This document shows positions 1-59,018 of a stretch of DNA of 64,000 bases, one piece after another. The notes beneath the pieces were generated by a model. The model saw only the letters and a list, made by a program, of their open reading frames with translations, searched no databases and was not told the DNA's origin. The stretch lies in NCBI RefSeq assembly GCF_030384885.1, contig NZ_CP128613.1, one strand, 5' to 3'. How positions within the stretch are numbered: the first letter of the stretch is position 1; the number at the start of each line of letters is the position of its first letter. The translations under genes were made by a program, and so were the position numbers. Source of the DNA: Escherichia coli (lineage in GTDB: Bacteria > Pseudomonadota > Gammaproteobacteria > Enterobacterales > Enterobacteriaceae).

Positions 1-1261
1 CGAACTGGCTGCATACATGCCGGTTTCCGGTTCGTTTGCCACTTACGGTCAGAACTATGTTGAAGAAGGCTTTGGCTTTGCGCTGGGCTGGAACTACTGG
101 TACAACTGGGCTGTGACTATTGCCGTTGACCTGGTTGCTGCGCAGCTGGTTATGAGCTGGTGGTTCCCGGATACACCCGGTTGGATCTGGAGTGCGCTGT
201 TCCTCGGCGTTATCTTCCTGCTGAACTACATTTCGGTCCGTGGCTTTGGTGAAGCAGAATACTGGTTCTCACTGATCAAGGTTACGACGGTTATTGTCTT
301 TATTGTTGTCGGCGTGCTGATGATTATCGGTATCTTCAAAGGCGCACAGCCTGCGGGCTGGAGCAACTGGACAATCGGCGAAGCACCGTTTGCTGGTGGT
401 TTTGCGGCAATGATCGGCGTGGCAATGATTGTCGGCTTCTCTTTCCAGGGTACCGAGCTGATCGGTATTGCTGCAGGCGAGTCCGAAGATCCGGCGAAAA
501 ACATTCCACGCGCGGTACGTCAGGTGTTCTGGCGAATCCTGTTGTTCTATGTGTTCGCGATCCTGATCATCAGCCTGATTATTCCGTACACCGATCCGAG
601 CCTGCTGCGTAATGATGTGAAAGACATTAGCGTTAGCCCGTTCACCCTGGTATTCCAACACGCGGGTCTGCTCTCTGCGGCGGCGGTGATGAACGCTGTT
701 ATTCTGACGGCGGTGCTGTCAGCGGGTAACTCCGGTATGTATGCGTCTACTCGTATGTTGTACACCCTGGCGTGTGACGGTAAAGCGCCGCGCATTTTCG
801 CTAAATTGTCGCGTGGTGGCGTGCCGCGTAACGCGCTGTATGCGACGACGGTGATTGCCGGTCTGTGCTTCCTGACCTCGATGTTTGGTAACCAGACGGT
901 ATACCTGTGGTTGCTGAACACCTCTGGTATGACAGGCTTTATTGCCTGGCTGGGGATTGCGATTAGCCACTACCGCTTCCGTCGCGGTTACGTATTGCAG
1001 GGACACGACATTAACGATCTGCCGTACCGTTCAGGCTTCTTCCCACTGGGGCCGATCTTCGCATTCATTCTGTGTCTGATTATTACTTTGGGCCAGAACT
1101 ACGAAGCGTTCCTGAAAGACACCATTGACTGGGGCGGCGTAGCGGCAACATATATTGGTATCCCGCTGTTCCTGATTATCTGGTTCGGATACAAGCTGAT
1201 TAAAGGAACTCACTTCGTACGCTACAGCGAAATGAAGTTCCCGCAGAACGATAAGAAATAA
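1..1261 (+). CDS. lysP: Lysine-specific permease, C-terminal ~420 aa; 5' end lies upstream of the window
   Basis: Reading frame is open from the window start (frame of pos 2) into ORF 17..1261; multi-TM amino acid permease sequence matching my recollection of LysP; conserved position upstream of cirA. Confidence 0.85.
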   Translation, partial: ELAAYMPVSGSFATYGQNYVEEGFGFALGWNYWYNWAVTIAVDLVAAQLVMSWWFPDTPGWIWSALFLGVIFLLNYISVRGFGEAEYWFSLIKVTTVIVFIVVGVLMIIGIFKGAQPAGWSNWTIGEAPFAGGFAAMIGVAMIVGFSFQGTELIGIAAGESEDPAKNIPRAVRQVFWRILLFYVFAILIISLIIPYTDPSLLRNDVKDISVSPFTLVFQHAGLLSAAAVMNAVILTAVLSAGNSGMYASTRMLYTLACDGKAPRIFAKLSRGGVPRNALYATTVIAGLCFLTSMFGNQTVYLWLLNTSGMTGFIAWLGIAISHYRFRRGYVLQGHDINDLPYRSGFFPLGPIFAFILCLIITLGQNYEAFLKDTIDWGGVAATYIGIPLFLIIWFGYKLIKGTHFVRYSEMKFPQNDKK

Positions 1262-1281
1262 GTTTCCTCCCTTCCTTGCTA

Positions 1282-1308
1282 AGCCCTCTCAACCGAGAGG
1301 GCTTTTTC
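1282..1308 (+). terminator. Rho-independent terminator of lysP
   Basis: GC-rich hairpin agccctctc-aacc-gagagggct followed by TTTTT directly after the lysP stop. Confidence 0.7.
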
Positions 1309-1357
1309 AATTCTATTTCCCTGACAAATCATGCGGATATAAATTTTAACATTTGGA

Positions 1358-1386
1358 TTGATAATTGTTATCGTTTGCATTATCGT
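1358..1386 (+). promoter_or_regulatory. Fur box(es) in cirA promoter
   Basis: tgataattgttatcgtttgcattatcgtta resembles the Fur consensus GATAATGATAATCATTATC; cirA is a classical Fur-repressed gene. Confidence 0.6.
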
Positions 1387-1553
1387 TACGCCGAAATCAA
1401 AAAAGGCTGACAAATCAGGGGCTGTTCCGGCTTTCTGGGATGATCACCTGCATACAAATAAGTCCACCGCGATGCTGCCGTACGCAAGGGGACGTGAAGA
1501 AGATGTGAGCGATAACCCATTTTATTTTCGTAGTTACCTCATGGAGATATGGA

Positions 1554-3533
1554 ATGTTTAGGTTGAACCCCTTCGTACGGGTCGGGCTGTGTTTGTCCGC
1601 TATTTCTTGTGCATGGCCTGTGTTAGCGGTCGATGATGATGGCGAAACGATGGTTGTCACCGCATCTTCCGTTGAGCAAAACCTTAAAGATGCACCCGCC
1701 AGTATCAGCGTCATTACCCAGGAAGACCTGCAGCGAAAACCGGTACAGAATCTGAAGGATGTCCTCAAAGAAGTGCCTGGCGTACAACTGACGAACGAAG
1801 GGGATAACCGTAAGGGCGTTAGTATTCGTGGTCTGGACAGCAGCTACACCCTGATTCTCGTCGACGGTAAACGCGTTAACTCCCGCAATGCCGTCTTCCG
1901 CCACAATGATTTCGATCTGAACTGGATCCCGGTCGATTCCATCGAACGTATTGAAGTGGTCCGTGGCCCGATGTCGTCGCTGTACGGTTCCGATGCGCTC
2001 GGCGGTGTCGTCAACATCATCACCAAGAAGATCGGTCAGAAATGGGCAGGCACAGTAACTGTTGACACCACCATTCAGGAACATCGCGATCGCGGTGATA
2101 CCTATAACGGTCAGTTCTTTACCAGCGGACCATTAATTGACGGCGTGCTGGGAATGAAAGCTTACGGCAGCCTGGCAAAACGTGAAAAGGATGACCCACA
2201 AAACTCAACGACCACCGATACCGGAGAAACGCCGCGTATTGAAGGATTCTCCAGCCGCGACGGCAATGTGGAATTTGCCTGGACACCGAATCAAAATCAC
2301 GATTTTACTGCCGGATACGGTTTTGACCGTCAGGATCGTGATTCCGACTCGCTGGACAAAAACCGCCTGGAACGTCAGAACTACTCCGTCAGCCATAATG
2401 GGCGTTGGGATTACGGCACCAGCGAACTGAAATACTACGGTGAGAAAGTCGAAAACAAAAACCCTGGCAACAGCAGCCCGATAACTTCCGAAAGCAATAC
2501 GGTCGACGGCAAATACACGTTGCCGTTGACGGCGATTAATCAGTTTCTCACGGTTGGCGGTGAATGGCGTCACGACAAACTTAGCGATGCGGTGAACCTG
2601 ACCGGGGGAAGCAGCTCCAAAACGTCTGCCAGCCAGTACGCGCTGTTTGTGGAAGATGAATGGCGGATCTTCGAGCCGCTGGCGCTGACGACCGGCGTAC
2701 GTATGGACGATCATGAAACCTACGGTGAACACTGGAGTCCTCGTGCCTACCTGGTTTATAACGCCACCGACACCGTAACGGTGAAAGGGGGCTGGGCGAC
2801 GGCATTTAAAGCGCCTTCTCTGTTGCAACTTAGCCCTGACTGGACGAGCAATTCCTGCCGTGGCGCATGCAAGATTGTGGGTAGCCCGGATCTGAAACCT
2901 GAAACCAGCGAAAGTTGGGAGCTGGGGCTTTACTACATGGGTGAAGACGGCTGGCTGGAAGGGGTGGAGTCCAGCGTGACCGTTTTCCGTAACGATGTGA
3001 AAGATCGCATCAGCATCAGCCGTACGTCTGACGTCAATGCTGCACCGGGCTACCAAAACTTTGTCGGTTTTACAGCGGACGGTGTGCCAGTATTCAGCTA
3101 CTACAACGTTAACAAAGCACGTATTCAGGGCGTGGAAACCGAACTGAAAATTCCGTTCAACGATGAATGGAAACTGTCGATCAACTACACCTACAACGAT
3201 GGTCGTGATGTCAGCAACGGCGAAAACAAACCGTTGTCCGATCTGCCGTTCCATACCGCTAACGGTACGCTGGACTGGAAACCGCTGGCGCTGGAAGACT
3301 GGTCATTCTATGTTTCTGGTCACTATACCGGGCAGAAACGCGCCGACAGCGCGACGGCTAAAACTCCGGGCGGTTATACCATCTGGAATACCGGCGCGGC
3401 CTGGCAGGTGACCAAAGACGTCAAACTGCGTGCGGGTGTGCTGAACCTTGGCGACAAGGATCTCAGTCGTGACGACTACAGCTATAACGAAGACGGACGT
3501 CGTTACTTTATGGCAGTGGATTATCGCTTCTGA
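1554..3533 (+). CDS. cirA: TonB-dependent catecholate siderophore / colicin I receptor
   Basis: 659-aa ORF; N-terminal signal peptide, TonB box region (ETMVVTA) and C-terminal ...AVDYRF beta-barrel terminus; matches recalled CirA sequence. Confidence 0.95.
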
Positions 3534-3540
3534 TGCGAAG

Positions 3541-3567
3541 ATGCCCGGCGTCGATCCCGCCGGGCAT
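3541..3567. terminator. Hairpin between convergent cirA and transporter gene (probable bidirectional terminator)
   Basis: Inverted repeat atgcccggcg-tcgatc-cgccgggcat between two convergent stop codons. Confidence 0.5.
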
Positions 3568-3591
3568 AATTCCAGAAATTCGCTTCTGGCT

Positions 3592-4914
3592 TTATAACCG
3601 ATGAAATTTTGCCAGTAAGGCCAGTGAAAATGTTGTCAGCAAAATGGTAATGACTGCGTAAATATACACTCCTGACCATTCCCAACTGTTTTTCACCATA
3701 ATAACTGGAAGCCCTGCCATTGCCGCGCCTAAATAACTAAACAAGCCCCTGAATCCAGTAATGGAACCTGCCGCATCTTTATGCGTAACATCAAGACACC
3801 CGACAGCGAATAACATATGCGGTCCATACAATGCAAACCCCATGATTGTAAACAGAATAGCCGTTAATGTGTAGGAGACGTCCTGCACCAGCGGTACGAG
3901 AACGATGCAAATACATAAAGCGATGGCAAAGATTAATCCGGTCATCCAGCGGTTACTTTTAAACATGAAATCGGACAAGTACCCCGCCAGTAATCCCCCA
4001 GCAAGTCCACCTGCTTCAAACCAGGATATAATGGAGTTCGCTTTAATCAGGCTCCAGTTATGAACCTGAGAATAATAAATTTGTGGCCAGTCATTGAGGA
4101 TGGTGCGTGCAATATAGACCGACATATCCCCGAGGATAATGAGCCAAACTAATGGGTTGGTAAGAATATATTTAACGAATATTTGCCAAAAACTGAGATC
4201 AACCGGACTTGCTTTAACTTGTGCAAGTTCTGTCGGGTCGTTGCGCCACTTACCGACGTTAGGCAAACCGAGCGTGCCGGGACGATCTTTTATCGTAAAC
4301 AAGGCAACAATCCCCATAATCAGTGAGATTACACCCGGAACATAAAAGCCCATCTTCCAGCTGCCACTAAAAGCAATAGCAAAGCTTGTCAGGAGAGGCG
4401 CAAGACTACCGCCAATATTATGCGCAGCTTCAACAACTGCCCACCAGCGTCCGCGTTCATTTTTCGAGAACCACGAGGCCATAATTTTTGCCATTGGCGG
4501 AAAACTGGTACCCTGGAGAATAGCATTAAGGCTATACAGGATATAGAACGCAGCAACGCTGTCTGAAAAACCGAAAAGAATGTTAACAATACCGACGCCA
4601 ATAAGTACGGGGCCAGTCATCGCTCGTGGGTTAATTTTATCGACTAACATGCCACCTACAAACTTCATGGAGCCATAAAGAATGTAAAAGACCGACGACA
4701 TGATAGCGAAATCTTGTGCGGTTAATGACGTATCCGTTAACATCGCTGGCATGGCCGCAGAGAAATTCTTGCGGGTTAAGTAAAATACGGCATAAGAGAT
4801 AAATACAGAGGTGATGATTTCAATGCGAAATTTTTTATAAGTATGATCAACTTCTTCTTTTGGTTTGACCACCGGTTGGTCGGCCTGGCTGAAAATAAAT
4901 TTTTTCAAACTCAT
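3592..4914 (-). CDS. MFS transporter of the organophosphate:Pi antiporter family (UhpT/GlpT/PgtP-like)
   Basis: 440-aa 12-TM protein; segments such as WQIFVKYILTNPLVWL align to recalled UhpT (WQIFVEYVLKNKVIWL); AT-rich, part of inserted island. Confidence 0.75.
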   Translation of the reverse strand: MSLKKFIFSQADQPVVKPKEEVDHTYKKFRIEIITSVFISYAVFYLTRKNFSAAMPAMLTDTSLTAQDFAIMSSVFYILYGSMKFVGGMLVDKINPRAMTGPVLIGVGIVNILFGFSDSVAAFYILYSLNAILQGTSFPPMAKIMASWFSKNERGRWWAVVEAAHNIGGSLAPLLTSFAIAFSGSWKMGFYVPGVISLIMGIVALFTIKDRPGTLGLPNVGKWRNDPTELAQVKASPVDLSFWQIFVKYILTNPLVWLIILGDMSVYIARTILNDWPQIYYSQVHNWSLIKANSIISWFEAGGLAGGLLAGYLSDFMFKSNRWMTGLIFAIALCICIVLVPLVQDVSYTLTAILFTIMGFALYGPHMLFAVGCLDVTHKDAAGSITGFRGLFSYLGAAMAGLPVIMVKNSWEWSGVYIYAVITILLTTFSLALLAKFHRL

Positions 4915-4946
4915 TGTGAGTTTCCTTTTCTGTGAACCTTATGGCG

Positions 4947-5834
4947 CTATAATTTTTCTTCTATAAAAAAGAGAAGCGACTCGAAACCATTAAAATTAAT
5001 CTGGTCAGCAATTTTTTCCCGGGTTTTAGGTTTTGCTTTCCATGCCACGCCATTTCCGGCATGCAAAAGCATAGGAATATCATTGGCACCATCTCCACAG
5101 GCAATGATGTTTTCACGGCAGATAGCTAACTCTGTCGCTAAATTTATCAGGGTTTGCTTTTTCTTTTCTGCATTCATAATAGGTAAGGTAATTGTATCAG
5201 TTAACAGATCTTCCTTAATGCGCACAGAGTTAGAAAATGCAAAATCAAGTTGATATTTTTCCTTCAATCGCTCAGTAAAAATATCCAAACCTCCAGATAT
5301 AATTGCCGTCTTGAATCCTTTTTCTTTTAGTATGGGAAGAATAGTTTCAAGACCTGGTGAAAGAGTCATCTGTTCACAAACTTGATGCAATATATCTTTA
5401 TGCGTTCCTTTAAGCATGGCAATTCGCCGGGTAAAACTGGTATCAAAATCGATTTTCCCTTCCATCGCTTCACGGGTCAGTGCGGTGATTTTTTCAGAGA
5501 TGCCGAGTCTACGGGCTATTTCATCGACACCTTCTTCTTCAACAAAGGTGGAATCCATATCAAAGGCAATAATTCCCTGATCCGGTAAGACCCTGGGTTT
5601 ACGGAAAAAATCAAACTGATGATTATCAGCACGGTGACGTAAACCAGCATAAAAAGCAGGGTTGGTAACATCATCTGGTAATACTAGCTTTAGATACTCT
5701 TTATTTATTTGCCCACTGTAATTCGTTGTTAGCGAAAACACCGAGGGGGAAATCTTTAAATGTTGCAGATAATCTTCCAGACATTTTTGGGTGATGTCGA
5801 TGCCTGTTGGCGACAAGAAATAAATAATCGTCAT
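4947..5834 (-). CDS. HAD-family phosphatase, phosphoserine phosphatase (SerB)-like
   Basis: 295 aa; HAD motif I FDMDST, motif III K...GG, motif IV GDGANDIPML as in SerB. Confidence 0.75.
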   Translation of the reverse strand: MTIIYFLSPTGIDITQKCLEDYLQHLKISPSVFSLTTNYSGQINKEYLKLVLPDDVTNPAFYAGLRHRADNHQFDFFRKPRVLPDQGIIAFDMDSTFVEEEGVDEIARRLGISEKITALTREAMEGKIDFDTSFTRRIAMLKGTHKDILHQVCEQMTLSPGLETILPILKEKGFKTAIISGGLDIFTERLKEKYQLDFAFSNSVRIKEDLLTDTITLPIMNAEKKKQTLINLATELAICRENIIACGDGANDIPMLLHAGNGVAWKAKPKTREKIADQINFNGFESLLFFIEEKL

Positions 5835-5927
5835 TTACCGCTCCTTTTTATCTGCAATGATTATAATAAGATTTCATAGAGGCTGATGTATCTGACAATC
5901 ACAGTTGTGAATGTTAAATAAAAGATA

Positions 5928-5991
5928 AAAAAGTACTTTTTTTGATACTTTGAAATAATAAGATACTAAAAGTACCATTTTTGATATCTTT
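5928..5991. promoter_or_regulatory. Pair of ~23-bp imperfect direct repeats in divergent promoter region of the island (candidate operator)
   Basis: aaaagtactttttttgatacttt (5928-5950) and aaaagtaccatttttgatatcttt (5968-5991) in the AT-rich gap between divergent operons. Confidence 0.4.
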
Positions 5992-6044
5992 ACCAGGATA
6001 TAAAGAATAACTATTTTTCAACGTTGAAGGAATCATTTAAAAAT

Positions 6045-7397
6045 ATGGAAAGCTGCATAGATATATTCAAGATAGTTATTGGTCCATCCAGTTCCCGCAC
6101 AGTCGGGCCAATGCGTGCGGCTTATAATTTTGTGTCACAATTGAAACAGCAAGAAATGTTACCTTTGTTGCGGAAAATTGATGTCGAACTTTATGGTGCG
6201 CTGTCATTAAGCCGCAAGTGCCATAATGTTGATGTGGCGATTTATCTCGGTTTGCAAGGACACTTACCTGACAGCGTTGACATTCGCATGGAAATGTCCG
6301 CCATCAGGCGTGCAGAAACTGAGGCGACGCTGGAAGTTATGCCTGGTGTCAACGTCAGTGTATCCATTCTTTCTAATCTACAAGCGCATCCGGGGCACCC
6401 TTATGCGATGACATTTCGTGCCAGAGATGACTGGTTTACACTTTATGAAGAAACCTGGTTTTCTATCGGCGACGGTCAAGTGCTAAAAGCAGGAGAGGCG
6501 ATTATTCCTCCATCAGTCACTCCACATCCTTTTGAATTCCAGAACGCAAACGAATTATTAAAACTTTGTCAGCAAAACGGATTATCTGTCGCGGCATTAA
6601 TGATGAAAAACGAACTGCACTGCCAGACAGCAGCTTTTTTGCATGACGATCTTCATAAAAAATGGGAAGTAATGAAGGATGCGGTTTATCGCGGGATGCA
6701 TACAGAAGGATTACTTCCAGGTCCGTTTCAGGTTAACCGTCGTGCCTGTGCTTTATATAAATCGTTGCAGTCAAAGGGTTTTTCCAATGACTTCCTGACT
6801 GCGCTCAATTGGGTCAATACTTTTGCCATTGCGGTGAGCGAAGAAAATGCTGCGGGTGGACGTGTCGTGACAGCACCCACCAACGGCGCGAGCGGTATTA
6901 TCCCGGCTGTACTGTGCTGGTATGATAAATTCATTCACGAGCTTGATACATACTCCGTTACCCGCTTTTTACTGACCGCTGGTGCCATCGCCATTCTGTT
7001 CAAAAAAAATGCCTCTATTCTGGGTTCTGAAGTTGGATGTCAGGGGGAAATAGGTGTTGCCAGTTCAATGGCGGCAGCAGGATTAGCAGAACTTATGGGC
7101 GGGTCAGTGGCTCAGGTACTTAGCGCGGCAGAAATTGCGATGGAGCATCATTTAGGTTTGACCTGTGATCCAGTTGGCGGGCAGGTACAAATTCCTTGTA
7201 TTGAACGAAATGCTATTTCAGCTGTGAAAGCTATCAACGCAACGACGATGGCGTTGAGTCGCATAAGCGAGCCGTGCATTACGCTGGATGAGATAATTTC
7301 CGCGATGTATGAAACCGGAAAGGATATGAGCGCTAAATACCGTGAAACTTATCATGGCTGTCTGAGCAAATTGCAGCCAAGAAAAAAGGATGCGTAA
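6045..7397 (+). CDS. L-serine dehydratase (Fe-S, SdaA/SdaB family) homolog
   Basis: N-terminus [23 protein letters not shown] parallels SdaA [23 protein letters not shown]; ORF track start 6024 is a TTG, ATG at 6045 preferred. Confidence 0.8.
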
Positions 7398-12186: not shown

Positions 12187-13185
12187 ATGAATAAGAAGGT
12201 GTTAACCCTGTCTGCTGTAATGGCCAGTATGTTATTCGGTGCCACTGCACACGCTGCTGATACCCGTATTGGTGTAACAATCTATAAGTACGACGATAAC
12301 TTTATGTCTGTTGTGCGCAAGGCTATCGAACAAGATGCGAAAGCCGCGCCAGATGTTCAGCTGCTGATGAATGATTCTCAGAATGACCAGTCCAAGCAGA
12401 ACGATCAGATCGATGTATTGCTGGCGAAAGGGGTGAAGGCACTGGCGATCAACCTGGTTGACCCGGCAGCTGCGGGTACGGTGATTGAGAAAGCGCGCGG
12501 GCAAAACGTGCCGGTGGTTTTCTTCAACAAAGAACCGTCTCGTAAGGCGCTGGATAGCTACGATAAAGCCTACTATGTCGGCACTGACTCCAAAGAGTCC
12601 GGCATTATTCAGGGCGATTTGATTGCTAAGCATTGGGCGGCAAACCAGGATTGGGATCTCAACAAAGACGGTCAGATTCAATTCGTACTGCTGAAAGGTG
12701 AACCGGGCCATCCGGATGCAGAAGCACGCACCACTTACGTGATTAAAGAGCTGAACGACAAAGGCATCAAAACTGAACAGTTACAGTTAGATACCGCTAT
12801 GTGGGATACCGCTCAGGCGAAAGATAAGATGGACGCCTGGCTGTCTGGCCCGAACGCCAACAAAATCGAAGTGGTTATCGCCAACAACGATGCGATGGCA
12901 ATGGGCGCAGTAGAAGCACTGAAAGCACACAACAAGTCCAGCATTCCAGTGTTTGGTGTCGATGCGCTGCCAGAAGCTCTGGCACTGGTGAAATCCGGTG
13001 CACTGGCGGGCACCGTATTGAACGACGCTAACAACCAGGCGAAAGCGACTTTTGATCTGGCGAAAAACCTGGCCGATGGCAAAGGTGCGGCTGATGGTAC
13101 CAACTGGAAAATCGACAACAAAGTGGTCCGCGTACCTTACGTTGGCGTAGATAAAGACAACCTGGCTGAATTCAGCAAGAAATAA
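12187..13185 (+). CDS. mglB: Periplasmic galactose/glucose-binding protein
   Basis: 332 aa with signal peptide ...[12 protein letters not shown]; matches recalled MglB. Confidence 0.95.
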
Positions 13186-20781: not shown

Positions 20782-21908
<1,127 letters not shown>

Positions 21909-22002
21909 TTAATTCGTAAAACGTGCTACCGATCACATTAAGAATTCTCAGCATAGTTGAATTACAGGGAAGTAACATCGGGCGAGTGCCCAGTTCAGCA
22001 CA

Positions 22003-22914
22003 CTAATTCTGCTGTAAAAAGTGCAGAAACTGACTTAAAGCATAAGAAGGCGTTTCGTTATTACGCCAAAACACACCGACGCTGCCTTTCTGTTCAATCT
22101 TTGGCAGGTTGAGGATTGCCAGTTGCCCCTGGCTGGCATAACGTTGCGCCAGGCGTAATGACAAAATAGAGATCATATTGCTGCTTTGTAACAGGTTGGT
22201 ACTGACGTTCATCGATGCCGACTCAATCGTGTTTTCTGGCAGCATCACGCCGTGGTCTACCAGCGCATTATCAATGCTGATGCGGATGGGGGTACCTGTC
22301 GGCCAGACTATCCACCGCCAGTTAGCAAGATCATTCCAGCTGAGGGTGGCGTATTTCGCCAGTGGATGCTCAGGACGGGCGACAAAGCATACCGGCTCGG
22401 TGTAGAGCACGCGATAATTCAGCGGCAGCTGCAACGCGCGACCGCCAATTCGCCCAACCACCACATCGACAGAACCTGCCAACAGATCTTGCAGCAATGG
22501 GGTCATCACCTTCTCTTCGATATTCAGGTGTAGAGTTGGCATCTCCTTGAGCAAATGCAAAATCGCCTGGGATACGCAGTCAGTGGCGACGGGAGAACAG
22601 CCAATTTTCAGACTGCCGACCAGTCCACCTTGTTTAAAGCGAGCCAGTTCATATTGCGATCTTTCCATGTCATTGATTAACCGTTGGGCATGTTGCAATA
22701 ACAATTTGCCGCCTTCGGTCGGACGAAGCCCTTTGCTGTGCCGCTCAAAAAGTGTGAGTCCGATCTCATCTTCCAGTTGTGACAACCATTTCGAAAGCGC
22801 GGGTTGGGTGATATTCATCATCCGCGCGACATGGGTCAGATTACCCTGTTCACCCAGCGCCACCAGCATTTGCAGGTGATGTAGTTTTAGTTTTTGCGCC
22901 CAGTTCGCCATTTG
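22003..22914 (-). CDS. mhbR: LysR-family regulator of the gentisate cluster (MhbR-like)
   Basis: N-terminal HTH LTHVARMMNITQPALSKWL, divergent from the catabolic operon; start uncertain (22914 or 22959). Confidence 0.75.
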   Translation of the reverse strand, partial: QMANWAQKLKLHHLQMLVALGEQGNLTHVARMMNITQPALSKWLSQLEDEIGLTLFERHSKGLRPTEGGKLLLQHAQRLINDMERSQYELARFKQGGLVGSLKIGCSPVATDCVSQAILHLLKEMPTLHLNIEEKVMTPLLQDLLAGSVDVVVGRIGGRALQLPLNYRVLYTEPVCFVARPEHPLAKYATLSWNDLANWRWIVWPTGTPIRISIDNALVDHGVMLPENTIESASMNVSTNLLQSSNMISILSLRLAQRYASQGQLAILNLPKIEQKGSVGVFWRNNETPSYALSQFLHFLQQN

Positions 22915-23037
22915 CCATAACCTCCAGGTTATCTCTCTGCCCGAAATGCCATTGTACATCTCATCTCTTTAATCACATTATCGCAACATATACAAAACAA
23001 AAGAAACATCTACCTTACCTGCACTGAGGCATTTACT

Positions 23038-24396
23038 ATGACTCAACGACGTGATTTACAAGCACTTATCGATGCCGCTCCGGTCGGCAAGATGCAGTGG
23101 CGCGTTATCATCTGCTGTTTTCTGGTGGTAATGCTCGATGGTTTTGACACCGCGGCTATCGGCTTTATCGCCCCTGATATTCGCACTCACTGGCAGCTCA
23201 CCGCAGGCGATCTCGCCCCGCTTTTTGGTGCGGGTCTGCTGGGATTAACCGCAGGCGCACTGCTTTGTGGCCCGTTGTCCGATCGCTTTGGTCGCAAGCG
23301 GGTGATTGAGCTGTGCGTCTTTTTGTTTGGCGCGTTAAGCCTCGCCTCGGCTTTCTCACCGGATCTGCAAACGCTGGTCTTCCTGCGCTTTCTCACCGGC
23401 CTGGGTCTGGGCGGCGCGATGCCGAACACCATCACCATGACCTCGGAGTATCTGCCTGCCCGCCGCCGCGGCGCGCTGGTGACGCTGATGTTTTGCGGCT
23501 TTACGCTGGGTTCGGCGTTTGGCGGGATTGTCAGTGCGCAGCTGGTGCCGGTGATTGGCTGGCACGGCATTCTGGTGTTGGGGGGCGTGTTACCGCTGAT
23601 GCTGTTTGTCGCACTGCTGGTAGTTCTGCCGGAATCGCCACGCTGGCAGGTGCGCCGCCAGCTACCGCAGGCGGTGATTGCGAAAACCGTCAGCGCCATC
23701 ACCCGCGAGCGTTATGTCGATACCCACTTTTATCTCATTGAATCAGCCTCCGTTACAAAAGGCAGCATTCGTCAACTGTTTATGGGACGTCAGTTACCCA
23801 TTACGTTGATGTTGTGGGTAGTGTTCTTTATGAGCCTGCTGATTATTTACCTGCTCTCAAGCTGGATGCCGACGCTACTGAACCATCGCGGCATAGACCT
23901 GCAACACGCGTCCTGGGTCACCGCCGCGTTCCAGATTGGCGGTACGTTGGGCGCGCTGGCGCTGGGCGTGCTGATGGATAAGTTCAATCCTTTCCGCGTG
24001 CTGGCGCTGAGCTATGCCATAGGCGCTATATGCATCGTGATGATTGGCTTAAGCCAGGATGGATTATGGCTGATGGCGCTGGCGATTTTCGGCACCGGCA
24101 TTGGCATTAGCGGATCTCAGGTGGGGCTGAATGCGCTGACCGCAACACTTTATCCAACACAAAGTCGCGCCACGGGCGTGAGCTGGTCAAATGCTATCGG
24201 CCGCTGCGGCGCGATTGTCGGCTCGCTTTCTGGCGGCCTGATGATGGCGATGAATTTCTCTTTCGACACCCTGTTTTTCATTATCGCTGTGCCCGCGGCG
24301 ATCAGTGCGGTGATGTTAAGCCTGCTGATCACCGTGGTTCGCCAGTCGACCTCTGTCCCTGACTCACTGCCTCGCGCAGGCGTTGTGAACGAATAA
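23038..24396 (+). CDS. mhbT: MFS aromatic acid:H+ symporter (3-hydroxybenzoate/gentisate transporter-like)
   Basis: 452 aa, 12 TM, MFS motifs ([11 protein letters not shown]). Confidence 0.75.
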
Positions 24397-24407
24397 GGAG
24401 CATCCTA

Positions 24408-25436
24408 ATGACTGATAACAATCAAAAAAGCCGCGAGCAATTTTATCAGCATATTTCCGGGCAAAACCTGACCCCGCTGTGGGAGTCACTGCACCACCTG
24501 GTGCCGAAAACGCCCAACGCCAACTGTGCGCCAGCGTACTGGAATTATCAGGAGATCCGCCCGCTGCTGCTGGAGAGCGGCAGCCTGATTGGCGCGAAAG
24601 AAGCTGTGCGTCGTGTGCTGGTACTGGAAAACCCGGCGCTGCGCGGGCAGTCTTCCATTACCGCGACTTTATATGCCGGTTTGCAACTGATCATGCCGGG
24701 CGAAGTGGCACCGAGTCATCGTCATAATCAGTCGGCGCTGCGTTTTATTGTTGAAGGCAAAGGGGCATTTACCGCCGTTGATGGCGAACGCACGCCAATG
24801 AATGAGGGCGATTTTATCCTGACCCCACAATGGCGCTGGCACGATCACGGTAACCCTGGCGACGAACCGGTTATCTGGCTCGATGGACTGGATCTGCCAT
24901 TAGTGAACACTCTGGGCTGCGGTTTTGCCGAAGATTACCCGGAAGAGCAACAACCGGTAACGCGTAAAGAGGGCGATTATCTGCCACGTTACGCTGCCAA
25001 TATGTTGCCGCTGCGCCATCAGACCGGGAACTCCTCACCCATCTTTAACTACCGTTATGACCGTAGCCGCGAAGTGCTGCACGATTTAACCCGCCTGGGC
25101 GATGCCGATGAGTGGGATGGCTACAAAATGCGCTACGTCAACCCGGTCACCGGCGGCTATCCGATGCCGTCGATGGGCGCCTTCCTGCAACTGCTACCGA
25201 AAGGGTTCGCCTCCCGCGTGGCGCGTACCACTGACAGCACTATCTACCATGTAGTGGAAGGTAGCGGACAAGTCACCATCGGCAATGAAATCTTCACCTT
25301 TAGTGCAAAAGATATCTTTGTGGTGCCGACCTGGCACGGCGTGTCATTCCAGATTACGCAAGATACCGTTTTATTCAGTTTTTCGGACAGACCGGTACAA
25401 GAAGCCCTGGGGCTGTTCCGCGAAGCGCGTTATTAA
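24408..25436 (+). CDS. mhbD: Gentisate 1,2-dioxygenase (bicupin)
   Basis: 342 aa; cupin His motif [12 protein letters not shown]; size and order as in gentisate clusters. Confidence 0.8.
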
Positions 25437-25451
25437 TTTGGGAGAGAGAAA

Positions 25452-26153
25452 ATGACTCAATATGTATTCGAACCACAAGCGCCCGTTACCGTACCGGTTG
25501 TTGGCAGTGATGAACAATTCCCCGTGCGCCGCGTTTACTGTGTCGGGCGTAACTATGCCGCCCACGCCCGCGAAATGGGCTTTGATCCGGATCGTGAACC
25601 CCCCTTCTTCTTCTGCAAACCAGCAGATGCCGTTGTTCCGGTCGCCGCTGGCGAAACGCTGGCGCTGCCGTATCCGGCGCAGACCGATAACTATCATTAC
25701 GAAATTGAACTGGTGGTGGCGATTGGTAAAAAGGGCAGCGATATCCCACTGGAAAAGGCCCATGAATATGTCTGGGGTTATGCCACAGGCCTTGATATGA
25801 CTCGCCGTGACCGTCAAATGGAAATGCGTCAGATGGGCCGCCCGTGGGAAATCGGCAAAGCATTTGATCTCTCGGCCCCCATCGCACCGCTGCACAAAGC
25901 CAGCGAAACTGGCGGTATTGATAACGCACCTATCTGGTTACAGGTTAACGGCGAAGATCATCAGCGCAGCGATATTCGTCATCTCATCTGGTCAGTGAAT
26001 GAAACCATCAGCTACCTGTCAGGCTTCTTTGAACTGCAACCGGGCGATCTAATCTTTACCGGTACGCCAGAAGGGGTGGGCCCAGTAGTCAAAGGTGATG
26101 TGATCACGGGCAACGTCGAGGGCTTAACCCCTATCGCGGTGAAGATTGTCTGA
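25452..26153 (+). CDS. mhbH: Fumarylpyruvate hydrolase (FAH family)
   Basis: 233-aa FAH-fold protein following the dioxygenase. Confidence 0.75.
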
Positions 26154-26161
26154 GGTGCATG

Positions 26162-26806
26162 ATGAAGCTGTACAGTTTTTTTAATAGTTCAGCATCGTAC
26201 CGGGTACGCATTGCGCTGGCGCTGAAAGGCATTAATTACCAGACCGAAGGGGTGAATATCCGTATTGGTCAGCAAAATGAACTGGCCTATCGGCGGATGA
26301 ATCCTGTCGGGCTGGTGCCGACGCTGCTGACTGACGAGGGCGAGTCACTCGGTCAGTCGCTGGCGATTATTGACTGGCTGGATCGTCACTACCCGCAAGT
26401 TCCGCTGGTGCCGCAGGAAGAACCGGCCCGCAATAAGGTGCTGGAAATTGTCTATGCCATCGCTTGTGATATTCATCCATTGAATAACCTGCGCGTGCTG
26501 CGCTATCTGACCGAAGAGCTGAACGTCAGTGAAGAAGAGAAAAAACGCTGGTATGCGCACTGGATCCAGCAAGGGTTAAGCGCGGTGGAACAGCTACTGC
26601 GCCAGAGCCAGTCGGGGCAATTTTGTGTGGGTGAGACGCCGACGCTGGCAGACTGCTGCCTTGTTCCGCAGTGGGCGAACGCGCTACGTATGAACTGCGA
26701 TCTGAGTGGATATCCGCGCTGCAAAGCGGTGTACGACGCCTGCACACAACTGCCAGCGTTCATTGCCGCAGCGCCAGAAAATCAACAAGATAAAATTTCA
26801 GCCTGA
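26162..26806 (+). CDS. mhbI: Maleylpyruvate isomerase (GST zeta-class)
   Basis: 214-aa GST-like protein. Confidence 0.75.
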   Translation: MKLYSFFNSSASYRVRIALALKGINYQTEGVNIRIGQQNELAYRRMNPVGLVPTLLTDEGESLGQSLAIIDWLDRHYPQVPLVPQEEPARNKVLEIVYAIACDIHPLNNLRVLRYLTEELNVSEEEKKRWYAHWIQQGLSAVEQLLRQSQSGQFCVGETPTLADCCLVPQWANALRMNCDLSGYPRCKAVYDACTQLPAFIAAAPENQQDKISA

Positions 26807-26820
26807 CCAGGAGAACCATA

Positions 26821-28014
26821 ATGACTAAAGTGACACGCGCAGTAATTGTGGGAGGCGGGATCGGCGGTGCGGCAACTGCGCTGTCACTGGCCCGCCAGGG
26901 GATCAAAGTGGTGCTGCTGGAAAAGGCGCATGAGATCGGTGAGATCGGCGCAGGTATCCAGTTGGGGCCAAATGCGTTTTCGGCGTTGGATAGTCTTGGT
27001 GTTGGCGAAATCGCCCGCCAACGTGCGGTATTCACCGATCACATCACCATGATGGACGCGGTGAACGCCGAAGAAGTGGTGCGTATTGAAACCGGGCAGG
27101 CCTTTCGTGACCATTTCGGCGGCCCTTACGCGGTGATCCACCGCGTTGATATTCATGCCTCGGTGTGGGAAGCGGTACTGACGCATCCGAACGTGGAGTA
27201 TCACACCTCTACGAATGTCGTGGATATTCGTGAGACGGAAGACGATGTCACCGTTTTCGACGATCGAGGTAATAGCTGGAGCGGCGATATTTTGATTGGA
27301 TGTGATGGCGTGAAGTCAGTGGTGCGCCAGAGCTTATTAGGCGATGCGCCGCGCGTCACCGGTCATGTGGTCTACCGTGCGGTTATCGATTGTGCGGATA
27401 TGCCGGAAGATTTACGTATTAATGCGCCGGTATTGTGGGCGGGGCCGCACTGTCACCTGGTGCATTATCCTTTGCGCGGCGGCAAGCAGTATAACCTGGT
27501 GGTGACATTCCACAGCCGCCACCAGGAAGAGTGGGGCGTGAAGGATGGCAGTAAAGAGGAAGTGCTTTCCTATTTTGAAGGCATTCACCCGCGTCCTCGC
27601 CAGATGCTGGATAAACCGACGTCATGGCGACGCTGGTCAACGGCCGATCGTGAACCGGTAGGGAAATGGGGGACTAACCGCATTACGCTGGTGGGCGATG
27701 CGGCCCATCCGGTGGCGCAGTATATGGCACAAGGTGCCTGTATGGCGCTGGAAGATGCAGTAACGCTGGGTAAGGCGCTGGCGCAGTGTGAGGGTGATGC
27801 GGCGCAAGCTTTTGCGCTGTATGAGTCGGTACGTATTCCGCGTACCGCGCGCATCGTCTGGTCGACCCGTGAAATGGGGCGGGTTTATCACGCCGCAGGG
27901 GTAGAACGTCAGGTACGTAACCTGCTGTGGAAAGGGAAATCGCAGGCAGAGTTTTATCGCGGCATGGAGTGGCTGTACGGCTGGAAAGAAGATAACTGTC
28001 TGCAACCACGCTGA
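26821..28014 (+). CDS. mhbM: FAD-dependent aromatic monooxygenase, 3-hydroxybenzoate 6-hydroxylase / salicylate hydroxylase family
   Basis: N-terminal VIVGGGIGGAATALSL dinucleotide fold, DG and GD FAD motifs. Confidence 0.75.
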   Translation: MTKVTRAVIVGGGIGGAATALSLARQGIKVVLLEKAHEIGEIGAGIQLGPNAFSALDSLGVGEIARQRAVFTDHITMMDAVNAEEVVRIETGQAFRDHFGGPYAVIHRVDIHASVWEAVLTHPNVEYHTSTNVVDIRETEDDVTVFDDRGNSWSGDILIGCDGVKSVVRQSLLGDAPRVTGHVVYRAVIDCADMPEDLRINAPVLWAGPHCHLVHYPLRGGKQYNLVVTFHSRHQEEWGVKDGSKEEVLSYFEGIHPRPRQMLDKPTSWRRWSTADREPVGKWGTNRITLVGDAAHPVAQYMAQGACMALEDAVTLGKALAQCEGDAAQAFALYESVRIPRTARIVWSTREMGRVYHAAGVERQVRNLLWKGKSQAEFYRGMEWLYGWKEDNCLQPR

Positions 28015-28042: not shown

Positions 28043-28084
28043 CGGTCCCCTCGCCCCTTTGGGGAGAGGGTTAGGGTGAGGGGA
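28043..28084. repeat. G-rich imperfect palindromic element at island junction
   Basis: ggtcccctcgcccctttggggagagggttagggtgagggg; family not recognised. Confidence 0.4.
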
Positions 28085-28173
28085 AAAATCTTGCCCGAAT
28101 TAATCAGTAAGTCAGTTTGTCTGCAAACACCAGAGGCGCTAACATAGCGCCTCATTTTTTTGCGGGTGATGAT

Positions 28174-29124
28174 ATGCGTGTGTTACTGGCGCCGATGGAG
28201 GGTGTACTCGACTCTCTGGTGCGTGAATTGCTGACCGAAGTTAACGACTACGATCTGTGCATCACCGAGTTTGTCCGCGTGGTGGATCAACTGCTGCCGG
28301 TAAAAGTTTTTCATCGCATTTGCCCGGAGCTACAAAACGCCAGCCGAACGCCATCCGGTACGCTGGTGCGCGTGCAATTGCTGGGTCAGTTCCCACAATG
28401 GCTGGCAGAGAACGCCGCCCGTGCGGTGGAGTTAGGTTCCTGGGGCGTGGATCTTAATTGCGGCTGTCCGTCGAAAACGGTTAACGGTAGCGGCGGCGGG
28501 GCGACACTACTCAAAGATCCTGAACTCATCTACCAGGGTGCAAAAGCGATGCGTGAAGCTGTACCGGCGCATTTGCCCGTCAGTGTGAAAGTGCGTCTGG
28601 GCTGGGACAGCGGTGAGAAGAAATTTGAAATCGCCGATGCGGTTCAACAGGCTGGCGCTACGGAGTTGGTGGTGCATGGGCGGACAAAAGAGCAGGGGTA
28701 CCGCGCGGAGCATATTGACTGGCAGGCGATTGGCGAGATTCGCCAACGGCTGAATATTCCGGTGATTGCCAACGGTGAAATCTGGGACTGGCAGAGCGCG
28801 CAACAGTGTATGGCGATCAGCGGCTGTGACGCGGTGATGATTGGTCGCGGAGCGCTCAATATTCCCAATCTGAGCCGAGTGGTAAAATATAACGAACCGC
28901 GAATGCCGTGGCCGGAGGTGGTTGCTTTGCTACAAAAATATACCCGTCTGGAAAAGCAGGGCGATACCGGGTTATATCACGTTGCGCGGATTAAACAGTG
29001 GTTGAGTTATTTGCGTAAAGAATACGATGAAGCAACAGAATTATTTCAGCATGTTCGGGTGTTGAATAATTCCCCTGATATTGCAAGGGCTATTCAGGCA
29101 ATTGCTATCGATAAGCTGCGATAA
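28174..29124 (+). CDS. dusC: tRNA-dihydrouridine(16) synthase
   Basis: Start at [10 protein letters not shown] (track start 28117 is upstream extension); Dus family TIM barrel. Confidence 0.9.
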
Positions 29125-47575: not shown

Positions 47576-49567
47576 TTACTCAAGCAAGGTTAATAATTGT
47601 TCGCAAAGCAAAACGCAGTTATTCATTGCTTCTCCCCGTGCCTCGCCTTCTGTATTACGAAATTGTCCCAACACATGTGCCAGCCGATAAAAACCCATCG
47701 CGGTGAGTTCATTGACCAGCAACTCTGACTGACTAATGGCACTCTGTTCCTGATAGCGCCAGCCATTATGGAGCAGTTGAATAAGCAACGCCTGACAGCG
47801 CATCAGTAACTGATGAGTGGTAGACGGTACAGGCAGAACGCTGGTAGAAGGTAGCGGTGCCACAGGCGAAGTTTCTGCGTCCAGTGCCCAGGCGCGGGTT
47901 TGCGTCATCATTACTCGTGGTTCCAGTGTCAATTGCCCCTCAGCAAAATTGATAAACCCAGAAACCAGACTAACGGGATCTTCTGTTTGTTGTAACAGAG
48001 CTGCCATGCGTTCAACAGCAAAGGGCGCACTGGCTGAAGCTGGCAGTGATAACGTCAGCACATTATCGTCACCTTCGCCACTGATTACCTGCGCATCCAG
48101 TGTCTGCCGACTGCTGTCCCAACCGAGTGAAATGCACTCTTCTACTGGCAGAATAAATAAGTTATCGACCTGGTTAAGCGGTCGTATGGCGGCTGGCGGA
48201 CGTTGGCGTAAATATTCCCGCAAAGCCACAATGCCCGGCTGGCGCAGTGGTGCGCTCAACATTTGCCAGGCATCAGGCGACAGCGGAACAACACTGCTTA
48301 AGCGGTTGCGGGTAGCTAACAGCAACTCGCCATCGGCACTGCGTTTTGCTGCTTGTGAAACAATTTGCCCACCCGCCAGCGCGCCAGCCTGAAAACTAAA
48401 CAGCCGCCGTTTTGCCGCTGGAGAGTTATCCTGTTCACTTCTCGGCCAACTGCGCGAAAGATGCAAAATACTGCCGGTGTCGGGATCGGTGAACCAGATG
48501 CGTAAACCATACCGCTCATTATCCTGCCAGCAACGCATACCTAGTGACACCAGCCGCAAATGATCAAGCTTTGCTTCGCCAGCAATGCCTGCGCCGACGA
48601 GCGTGCGCCACGGTATGGGCGGTACCTCACCGACACTGTCACGTCGCGCCATCTCTTGTGCACTGTTCAAGCGACTGGTTAACGCCGCAATCTGGCACAA
48701 GCATTTTCCGGCATGATAGTGGCTGGCGCGGGCGTGGAAGGCATCAACGCTTGCCCGTAGCTGTCGTAGTGATTCACTTACCCAACGCCAGTTGCAGCGT
48801 TCCGCCGCTTGCTGCGCGCGGCTGAAAGCGGCCTCGTAGTGGATTGGCGGTTGGCTGATCCCGCCCAGCCATAATGCCTGACTTAATTGCTGAACATATT
48901 GACGACATGCTTTACCTTCGTCGCTGGAAAACGGATCGTCAGATGATGTGACGTGTTCACTGTGCATCTGCCAGATCAAATGAGTAAATTCCGCTTGTTG
49001 ATTTTTGGCCTCGACGAAGGCCTGCACAGCCAGTGCTACGTGTTCACACAGCGTTCCTTCAATACAATCACAACGGGCGAAACGAATGCTGCTGCGGGAA
49101 TAAAAACGCACATCGCTCATCGGTAAGCGGGCAGAGGGAATTTCGCCCGGTGTGCAGAACAACTCAATGGTGATGCCTTTAGCGACCAGCGCCTGCGCGC
49201 GTTTACGCGTGGTATTGGGCAGGGTAGCCAGTTCTTCCTGCCAGATTGCCGGATCCCACTCTTCTTCTTTTTCCGTAGGCTGGGCGGTGGCACAAAGTCG
49301 TTGATAACTTAACACCAGCATCACGCGATGACGGCACATGCCGCTGGCCCCGCAGCTACATTGAGCCTCTTTCAGTGCCTGACTGTTCGCCAGCCGGGTA
49401 CGGACACCGTCACTGAAGGTGGCGATTAAAGCGCCGTTCTCATGGCAGATTTCCGGGACATTGCCATTTTCCAGTTCCTTAAGGCTGCGCTTCACAAAAC
49501 CAGCATTGCTTAACGCCGTCAGGGCCTGCGGTGTCAGTTCTAATAATTCCGGACGTAGTGAATTCAT
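47576..49567 (-). CDS. yehQ: SWIM zinc-finger protein, last gene of yehLMPQ
   Basis: CxC...CxH SWIM signature (CSCGASGMCRH) near N-terminus; start at MNSLRPEL gives ATGA overlap with yehP. Confidence 0.75.
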   Translation of the reverse strand: MNSLRPELLELTPQALTALSNAGFVKRSLKELENGNVPEICHENGALIATFSDGVRTRLANSQALKEAQCSCGASGMCRHRVMLVLSYQRLCATAQPTEKEEEWDPAIWQEELATLPNTTRKRAQALVAKGITIELFCTPGEIPSARLPMSDVRFYSRSSIRFARCDCIEGTLCEHVALAVQAFVEAKNQQAEFTHLIWQMHSEHVTSSDDPFSSDEGKACRQYVQQLSQALWLGGISQPPIHYEAAFSRAQQAAERCNWRWVSESLRQLRASVDAFHARASHYHAGKCLCQIAALTSRLNSAQEMARRDSVGEVPPIPWRTLVGAGIAGEAKLDHLRLVSLGMRCWQDNERYGLRIWFTDPDTGSILHLSRSWPRSEQDNSPAAKRRLFSFQAGALAGGQIVSQAAKRSADGELLLATRNRLSSVVPLSPDAWQMLSAPLRQPGIVALREYLRQRPPAAIRPLNQVDNLFILPVEECISLGWDSSRQTLDAQVISGEGDDNVLTLSLPASASAPFAVERMAALLQQTEDPVSLVSGFINFAEGQLTLEPRVMMTQTRAWALDAETSPVAPLPSTSVLPVPSTTHQLLMRCQALLIQLLHNGWRYQEQSAISQSELLVNELTAMGFYRLAHVLGQFRNTEGEARGEAMNNCVLLCEQLLTLLE

Positions 49568-54592: not shown

Positions 54593-54615
54593 ACGGGCAA
54601 ATTGAAACGCATCTA

Positions 54616-54645
54616 AGGGGGAAAATACCGCTTCCCCCTTTAATA
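54616..54645 (+). terminator. Rho-independent terminator of toxin mRNA
   Basis: agggggaa-aataccgc-ttccccct followed by ttaataaaat. Confidence 0.6.
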
Positions 54646-54792
54646 AAATGATTATTGCTTCCATTAATTCACCCGATAACTTTTTTCTTATTTATTAATT
54701 CATCGATTTTATAATTAACGTACATTTGACCGGGATGTGAGTATTTATGGTGGCTATTGGCGAAAAATATCTGGAAACCAGATCGCGGAAAA

Positions 54793-54874
54793 TAAAAAAA
54801 CCTGCTGGTGAGGCAGGTTCTTTTATTTACTACTTTGACGATAACTTGCTGATTGTGCAACATTTCGTACCAAC
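54793..54874 (-). ncRNA. Second Orz-like sRNA (orphan: no cognate toxin ORF downstream)
   Basis: Intact minus-strand promoter TTGCAA(54904-54909)-17-TATAAT(54881-54886), terminator hairpin 54800-54818 + U-run; seed gtgcaacatttcgtaccaac differs from unit 1. Confidence 0.6.
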
Positions 54875-54986
54875 GAGTAAATTATAACCATATCCACACT
54901 CCATTGCAATTCAGTGAGTGAGATTTATAATCCTGCCCCTTGGGAGGTTGTGCCGGATCGGACCAATTTGAATTATTTAGAGTATA

Positions 54987-55304
54987 TTATTCTATTTCTT
55001 GGTTGAATATGTTCTGTAGTTCACGATTAAAAATGGCTATTACCGTTTCTGGTGATTCACCTCGTAATTTTCGCTCATCAATAAATTCATCTCTTATATA
55101 AATCAACGCATCATTTATTAGCGGGTCGGCATCTTCTCCATCACGTTGATGAAATGTTGGACGTAGCCGGAATCGTTCCTGTCGATAGACGGAACCTGTA
55201 AATAATTCAGAGCATTTATGGATCTCAAGTCTGAAGGAAAACGGATCTTCAGGTACAGGGACTTCATAATCATAAGTAGCGACCAGCTCTTTTTGCACGA
55301 TCAT
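54987..55304 (-). CDS. yehK: Uncharacterized small protein
   Basis: 105 aa in conserved position between yehL and yehI. Confidence 0.75.
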   Translation of the reverse strand: MIVQKELVATYDYEVPVPEDPFSFRLEIHKCSELFTGSVYRQERFRLRPTFHQRDGEDADPLINDALIYIRDEFIDERKLRGESPETVIAIFNRELQNIFNQEIE

Positions 55305-55364
55305 CGCTTTTCCCGGTGGTAAGTCGTGTTGATAACGGGCAGTCGCATCACTGCCCGCTGTGTT

Positions 55365-59015: not shown

Positions 59016-59018
59016 TCC

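Follow-up and report, generated by a model that had tools for sequence, protein, structure and literature searches.

Gene Organization at the yohJ–dusC Locus

The DNA analyzed here, referred to as the window, is a stretch of 64,000 nt from Escherichia coli contig NZ_CP128613.1, and all positions follow its numbering. Positions 22003 to 28014 are occupied by the six-gene cluster mhbRTDHIM, which is predicted to encode the degradation of 3-hydroxybenzoate via gentisate to fumarate and pyruvate. The window matched the finished chromosome of strain 2013C-4282 with 100% identity, and RefSeq names mhbT, gtdA, maiA and 3-hydroxybenzoate 6-monooxygenase there. Published work places this strain in Escherichia cryptic clade I, which is sister to E. 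coli sensu stricto (PMC10100065). The locus is interpreted here as a chromosomal Enterobacteriaceae mhbRTDHIM operon at its ancestral position between yohJ and dusC, carried by a cryptic clade I strain, and a probability of about 0.85 is assigned to this interpretation. The following features were recorded at the locus.

21474–21872, minus strand: yohJ (CidA/LrgA family), left flanking core gene; NCBIfam PRK01821, 218 bits against a cutoff of 124, and RefSeq
21945–21953, no strand: left junction with the K-12-type empty allele; in alignments, K-12 homology stops at 21944–21952
22003–22911, minus strand: mhbR, LysR-type regulator, divergent from the operon; RefSeq start, GGAGG Shine-Dalgarno sequence
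22917–22932, no strand: palindrome ATAACCTCCAGGTTAT, putative MhbR operator with conserved half-sites
22948–22958, no strand: conserved block GCCATTGTACA in the mhbR–mhbT intergenic region, candidate promoter or activation site
23038–24396, plus strand: mhbT, AAHS-family MFS transporter, predicted to take up 3-hydroxybenzoate; PcaK and AAHS models, RefSeq name, motifs
24408–25436, plus strand: mhbD/gtdA, gentisate 1,2-dioxygenase; TIGR02272, PDB 2D40, His residues
25452–26153, plus strand: mhbH, FAH-family protein, predicted fumarylpyruvate hydrolase; PDB matches 6J5Y and 4MAQ
26162–26806, plus strand: mhbI/maiA, maleylpyruvate isomerase of the zeta-class glutathione S-transferase (GST) type, glutathione-dependent; TIGR01262, PDB 6JWK and 2V6K
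26821–28014, plus strand: mhbM, 3-hydroxybenzoate 6-monooxygenase dependent on flavin adenine dinucleotide (FAD); NF006021, PDB 4BJY and 4BJZ
28047–28083, no strand: GC-rich palindromic interspersed repeat between mhbM and the terminator, outside the pathway
28133–28161, plus strand: intrinsic terminator, 9-bp stem GAGGCGCTA/TAGCGCCTC followed by T7, ending mhbTDHIM about 12 nt 5' of the dusC ATG
28174–29124, plus strand: dusC, right flanking core gene; NF007838, 695 bits against a cutoff of 395, and RefSeq

A first-pass annotation, made from the sequence alone, had placed and named the six genes. In the open reading frame (ORF) check, all six were found at the coordinates claimed there, and none contained an internal stop codon; NCBIfam models, RefSeq and PDB matches agreed with the identities as named. 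For mhbR, the mechanical ORF extends to 22959, and the RefSeq start gives 22911. NCBIfam models identified yohK and yohJ as the left neighbors of the cluster and dusC as the right one. A K-12-like genome has yohJ and dusC side by side in divergent orientation; their adjacency in K-12 had been stated in the annotation.

Enzymes, Transporter and Predicted Pathway

The gentisate dioxygenase yielded 599 bits with TIGR02272 (cutoff 442) and differed from PDB entry 2D40, the enzyme of E. coli O157:H7, at 7 of 342 aligned residues (E = 1e-235). Residues His104, His106 and His145, which form the Fe2+-binding histidine triad in this bicupin family, are retained. Activity of the O157:H7 gentisate dioxygenase was described by Adams et al. 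2006, as cited in PMC4585797.

The product of mhbM reached 758 bits with NF006021 (cutoff 459) and aligned end to end with the structures of Rhodococcus 3-hydroxybenzoate 6-hydroxylase (3HB6H), 4BJY and 4BJZ (E = 4e-79). The motifs GGGIGG at 11–16, DG at 162, Arg169 and GDAAH at 292 were present, and His212 and Tyr216 aligned to residues 213 and 217 of the 4BJY chain. An active-site His/Tyr pair, presumably His212 and Tyr216 here, and Arg169 are features of this enzyme family.

For mhbI, the maleylacetoacetate/maleylpyruvate-type model TIGR01262 gave 309 bits (cutoff 171), and the nearest structures were 6JWK (E = 1e-68) and the maleylpyruvate isomerase NagL, 2V6K (E = 1e-47). The N-terminal glutathione-site motif SSASYRVRIAL, of the pattern SSxxxRVRIAL, was also found. 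Being a zeta-class GST close to 6JWK and NagL, the enzyme should therefore be glutathione-dependent. The best PDB matches of mhbH were 6J5Y (E = 2e-113) and 4MAQ, entitled 'putative fumarylpyruvate hydrolase' (E = 2e-73), whereas the maleylpyruvate hydrolase 6JVV was distant, at only E = 7e-22. The transporter MhbT carries DGFD at 33–36 (DGXD, transmembrane segment TM1) and, at 78–88, a sequence of the type GXXXD(R/K)XGR(R/K) (between TM2 and TM3), both of which match the AAHS motifs as described in PMC5566891.

The ratio of nonsynonymous to synonymous divergence (dN/dS) against the O157:H7 orthologues was 0.03–0.06 for all six mhb genes, the same range as for cdd, yohK, yohJ and dusC. All six genes are under strong purifying selection.

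Taken together, MhbT would import 3-hydroxybenzoate, and MhbM, with FAD, NAD(P)H and O2, would hydroxylate it at C6 to gentisate. The Fe2+ enzyme MhbD would then cleave the gentisate ring to maleylpyruvate, glutathione-dependent MhbI would isomerize maleylpyruvate to fumarylpyruvate, and MhbH would hydrolyze the latter to fumarate and pyruvate. The complete route that the first-pass annotation had predicted is supported. For this functional assignment, predicted from sequence, good support comes from homology, from conserved catalytic residues and from strong purifying selection.

Related systems point in the same direction. According to PMC3572157, mhbM of Klebsiella M5a1 is the 3-hydroxybenzoate 6-hydroxylase gene and MhbR a LysR-type activator, cloned Klebsiella DNA enabled K-12 to grow on 3-hydroxybenzoate (Robson 1996), and Salmonella runs the 3-hydroxybenzoate/gentisate pathway too. 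Metabolic models of enterohaemorrhagic E. coli already contain the gentisate dioxygenase reaction (PMC3229490), and the GtdA protein was found in O157 during rumen experiments (PMC9135228). By analogy with such systems, the present strain would be predicted to grow on 3-hydroxybenzoate.

Regulatory Region and Transcription End

The best NCBIfam match of MhbR was PcaQ, TIGR02424, at 185 bits, which lies below the equivalog cutoff of 303.8. MhbR is 85% identical in amino acids to its K. oxytoca orthologue, which occupies a matching chromosomal context. The mhbR–mhbT intergenic region measures 126 bp, and lengths of 125–126 bp were found in most Enterobacteriaceae examined.

The palindrome ATAACCTCCAGGTTAT overlaps the mhbR Shine-Dalgarno sequence and follows the pattern ATAACC-N4-GGTTAT. 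Across 20 Enterobacterales intergenic regions, its half-sites ATAAC/GTTAT were nearly invariant. A PcaQ consensus of ATAAC-N5-GTTAT is given in PMC3572157, and a PcaQ site of S. meliloti in PMC5002191. The half-sites resemble these PcaQ operators, which fits PcaQ as the closest family of MhbR, and the palindrome is accordingly regarded as a putative MhbR recognition site. In the Enterobacteriaceae sequences of the intergenic alignment, the block GCCATTGTACA had an invariant core, CCATT, with the remainder conserved.

As a working model, the PcaQ-like MhbR would bind ATAACC-N4-GGTTAT and, together with 3-hydroxybenzoate or gentisate, would activate the divergent mhbTDHIM promoter. In this model, the operator and the inducer are both inferred. 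Transcription of mhbTDHIM would end at the hairpin-T7 terminator just 5' of dusC. This terminator (28133–28161) is kept across genera and is also present in the empty allele of K-12.

The GC-rich repeat CCCCTCGCCCCTTTGGGGAGAGGGTTAGGGTGAGGGG (28047–28083) occurs as a single copy in the window, and similar sequences have a median count of 8 per E. coli genome. It was missing from the alleles of Escherichia strain E69 and Citrobacter.

Conservation of the Site Across Enterobacteriaceae

A synteny survey was performed in which one genome per species was scanned with MhbM and the window proteins were mapped onto the loci found. The order sanA-cdd-yohK-yohJ-mhbRTDHIM-dusC was observed in at least 25 genomes. 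These comprised E. albertii and the divergent Escherichia strain E69, three Klebsiella species, at least five Citrobacter species, Kluyvera, Pseudocitrobacter, Pseudenterobacter, Pluralibacter and Shimwellia. Salmonella diarizonae showed the same order as far as its partial locus extends. Gene order and strands were identical in the three Klebsiella species, in agreement with the mhbRTDHIM arrangement that the first-pass annotation had attributed to Klebsiella.

The nucleotide identity of the mhb genes followed that of the flanking genes. Compared with E. albertii, the flanking genes were 87–92% and the mhb genes 89–92% identical; the corresponding values were 80–86% and 79–85% for Citrobacter, and 77–80% and 74–82% for K. 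oxytoca. The synonymous divergence (dS) of the cluster and of its flanks likewise agreed at three evolutionary depths. In these alignments, K. oxytoca NBRC 105695 was used as a proxy for the characterized M5a1 sequences; Klebsiella pneumoniae M5a1 is now classed as K. oxytoca. Alignment to the Klebsiella Mhb proteins, which the first-pass annotation had named as a check, yielded 85–92% amino acid identity with this proxy.

Comparable results were obtained within the genus. The cluster was 95.06% identical to that of O157:H7, and the window outside the cluster was 95.7% identical to O157:H7 (33 kb) and 95.07% to the K-12-like genome (47 kb). Membership in cryptic clade I fits the identity of only about 95% between the window as a whole and other E. 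coli. A pairwise identity matrix of the cluster reproduced the phylogeny of the genus Escherichia. All eight sampled genomes with the left-flank type of this strain carried the cluster at the native site; of these, at least 2013C-4282 and EC42405 have been published as members of clade I (PMC10100065).

No integrase, insertion sequence (IS) element or tRNA gene was found at the native site by annotation and a tRNA scan. Terminal direct or inverted repeats were also not detected there, and no Rfam element was found.

Two further arrangements were observed. In Kluyvera and relatives (loci L026, L027, L030 and L044), mhbM and dusC are separated by about 1.5 kb of additional sequence; in these loci, dusC starts at approximately 12730–12890 as compared with about 11256. 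In Serratia marcescens (loci L029 and L032), a complete cluster with 86–92% amino acid identity to the E. coli proteins is present without the yohJ and dusC flanks, which looks like a transfer out of Enterobacteriaceae.

The Empty Allele and Its Distribution in E. coli

Homology to the K-12-type allele ended at about 21944–21952, roughly 50 nt past the mhbR stop codon, and resumed 4 nt past the mhbM stop when alleles without the extra repeat were compared. In the K-12-type allele, about 6.2 kb, comprising exactly the six genes, is replaced by some 0.12 kb of unrelated filler. The filler between the two points of homology measures 102 nt, and the operon terminator is still present. There, it lies directly 5' of dusC with nothing upstream to terminate. 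The filler (K-12-like locus L002, 2046–2166) contains a hairpin with an 11-bp stem, AGAGGGATTGC ... GCAATCCCTCT, and no relative of it was detected in any of the mhb-positive loci.

Among 5426 complete E. coli genomes, the filler allele was detected in 4920 and the native-site cluster in 504. The two alleles were essentially exclusive and together accounted for 5424 genomes.

Secondary Copies

In total, the cluster was found in 611 genomes, about 107 of which carry it away from the native site. One such copy lies in the efa1/lifA (lymphostatin) island of O145:H28 RM12581 and of strain 99-3311, with remnants of IS3, IS66 and IS4 (loci L006, 8001–14116, and L004, 6001–12116). Plasmid copies were found at 26 places. 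An example is the copy on a 77-kb plasmid from an O157:H16 isolate of pig origin (locus L005, 8001–13947), which lies among IS fragments, has tighter ends and is about 93.5% identical to the copy in the window. Compared with the native copy of O157:H7, secondary copies showed identities of 97.1% and 95.5%, inside or near the diversity of E. coli, and they represent intraspecific re-acquisitions. As the copies adjacent to efa1/lifA and on plasmids show, the trait can be regained by lineages that lost it.

Apart from one contig of a metagenome-assembled genome (MAG), no match was obtained for the flanks of the pathogenicity-island copy, and the native locus gave none. This contig, labelled Collinsella sp. 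(locus L008), was 99.6–99.9% identical to the O145:H28 island flanks and carries mhb genes, with mhbH missing. The contig almost certainly stems from E. coli and was mis-binned into a MAG of an actinobacterium.

The left end of the efa1/lifA-island copy falls within about 2 bp of the K-12 filler junction. The yohJ–dusC site may hold an old two-allele polymorphism of the 6.2-kb cluster and the 102-nt filler, with the cluster acting as a discrete cassette, although this idea is regarded as doubtful. If it were true, the coincidence of the left ends would hint at one shared, site-preferring mechanism of excision or capture. In that case, selection for the use of plant phenolics might likewise be at work in pathogenic, ruminant-associated lineages from which the native copy had been lost.

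Origin of the Cluster and Alternative Explanations

The cluster occupies the same site across genera, diverges together with its flanks and shows no signatures of mobility; therefore, the cluster is considered ancestral and the K-12 arrangement derived. Along this line, the cluster would have been inherited vertically with its flanking genes, and most E. coli sensu stricto would carry a derived filler allele. The K-12 state is accordingly best read as a loss.

Several observations weigh against this interpretation, or against the functional assignment that accompanies it. The cluster is patchy in E. coli sensu stricto, with 504 native-site carriers and 4920 filler alleles. The source of the filler was not found when the K-12 intergenic region was compared with 87 loci by blastn-short, which matched the flanks only. 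Because the cluster can move, some E. coli carriers could owe it to recombination instead of retention. It is also the highest-GC 6-kb block of the window, at about 1.5 standard deviations over the window mean. As for function, a consensus scan revealed no convincing sigma-70 promoter in the 126-bp intergenic region, with fewer matches than in shuffled sequence; for this reason, the region is described here by its conserved blocks and not by a promoter. MhbH reached no NCBIfam equivalog cutoff (best model PRK10691, 155 bits against 201), and MhbT scored 426 bits with the PcaK model and 379.5 bits with the AAHS model TIGR00895, both under the cutoff. Because neither protein reaches an equivalog cutoff, their substrates rest on context and homologues.

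When base composition is considered, the description of the cluster as conspicuously GC-rich in the first-pass annotation holds only in part. The comparison with the flanks that it named was carried out, and the guanine-plus-cytosine (GC) content was 54.8% in the cluster and 50.6% in the remaining window, an excess of 4.3 points. The difference is nevertheless modest, and GC content at third codon positions (GC3) was 0.55–0.68 in the cluster compared with 0.55–0.60 in flanking core genes, so that the values overlap. The GC excess of the cluster is small and does not clearly point to recent transfer.

The cluster might be intact but silent, or might serve another substrate, such as gentisate only or another hydroxy-aromatic acid, in which case no growth on 3-hydroxybenzoate would follow. 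The subthreshold scores of the transporter and the hydrolase, as well as the missing consensus promoter, would be compatible with this. It is considered unlikely, since strong purifying selection acts on all six genes, the regulatory palindrome is conserved and MhbM exceeds the 3-hydroxybenzoate 6-monooxygenase equivalog cutoff, with 758 bits. In addition, orthologous clusters support growth in Klebsiella, in Salmonella and, as cloned Klebsiella DNA, in K-12, according to PMC3572157.

A second scenario is that the cluster was missing after a loss in the common ancestor of E. coli and clade I and was later re-imported at the same site from a related Escherichia, by homologous recombination through the conserved flanks. 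Divergence from O157:H7 is indeed mosaic, with mhbT 98.3% and mhbM 92.7% identical, and two genomes sharing the clade-I-type flank differ by 2.2% in the cluster and by about 0.6% in the left flank; the patchy distribution in E. coli sensu stricto fits as well. However, the known outgroup copies, with identities of about 90% for E. albertii and about 91.5% for strain E69, lie too far away to have served as donors, and the mean divergence between the clade I and O157:H7 clusters equals the core divergence. Re-import also needs more events than retention plus loss, and it is judged very unlikely.

The proposal of the first-pass annotation, a GC-rich accessory island inserted between yohJ and dusC, can be read as a horizontal gain in the recent ancestry of this strain. 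It could draw on the lack of the cluster in K-12 and in about 89% of the complete E. coli genomes, on a GC content 4 points above the remaining window and on the occurrence of all six genes in a pathogenicity island and, beside IS elements, on plasmids, but it is largely refuted and highly improbable, given the same position in many genera, the equal divergence of cluster and flanks (95.06% compared with 95.1–95.7%), an identity matrix that mirrors the species tree, a native site that lacks integrase, IS element, tRNA gene and terminal repeats, and the presence of the cluster in all eight sampled genomes with the same left-flank type.

With vertical inheritance as the preferred explanation, the label 'island' is misleading, because the absence from K-12 reflects loss. 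The useful correction concerns direction: K-12 would be a deletion mutant relative to the enterobacterial ancestor. The cluster is of small practical value. It predicts that the clade I strain can use 3-hydroxybenzoate and gentisate, breakdown products of plant and microbial phenolics in gut and rumen. The same is expected of O157:H7 and of many Citrobacter, Klebsiella and Salmonella, while K-12 should be unable to use them.

Other Features of the Window

Just downstream of cirA (1554–3533), the window contains a segment (3551–7200) with three genes that are absent at this site from the K-12-like genome and from O157:H7.

3592–4914, minus strand: UhpC/PgtP-like MFS transporter
4947–5834, minus strand: SerB-like phosphoserine phosphatase
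6024–7397, plus strand: L-serine ammonia-lyase

These three genes look like a module for the uptake and catabolism of phosphoserine. At 48001–49000 and 54600–59400, the identity of the window to the K-12-like genome falls to 87–92%, with several alignment gaps. The low-identity stretches lie in the yeh region of the K-12-like genome, which appears to be hypervariable.

Comparison with Known Systems

The operon is already known: it is annotated by RefSeq and has been partly characterized in E. coli O157:H7 and Klebsiella. A literature search found no paper linking gentisate, E. coli and yohJ.

Among the closest known systems is the mhbRTDHIM cluster of Klebsiella M5a1, which agrees with the present operon in its six genes, in their order and in their orientation; its LysR-type regulator is likewise divergent. 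Work on this cluster comprises Jones & Cooper 1990, Robson 1996, Lin 2010 and Xu 2012, as cited in PMC3572157 and PMC5566891. In K. oxytoca, K. grimontii and K. spallanzanii, the cluster stands in the same yohJ ... dusC context, with 85–92% amino acid identity. The present locus differs in its host, Escherichia cryptic clade I, and in the interspersed repeat added between mhbM and the terminator.

The gentisate cluster of O157:H7 is orthologous and lies at the same locus, with 95% nucleotide and 97–99% protein identity. The nucleotide divergence of about 5% equals the core divergence between clade I and E. coli, and no functional difference was seen.

More distant systems share the chemistry. 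The nagIKL genes of Ralstonia sp. U2 and the Pseudomonas aeruginosa enzymes (2V6K/2JL4 for NagL, 6J5Y and 6JWK) likewise employ an Fe2+ dioxygenase, a glutathione-dependent isomerase and an FAH-family hydrolase. In Ralstonia and Pseudomonas, however, gentisate is derived from salicylate or naphthalene, within larger operons and under other regulators, whereas here it would be supplied by the 3-hydroxybenzoate 6-monooxygenase. For mhbRTDHI of Burkholderia xenovorans LB400, PMC3572157 describes a homologous T-D-H-I order with 53–64% identity to the Klebsiella enzymes. The LB400 cluster differs, according to the same paper, in its MarR-type regulator, in an unlinked mhbM and in an extra ORF between mhbT and mhbD.

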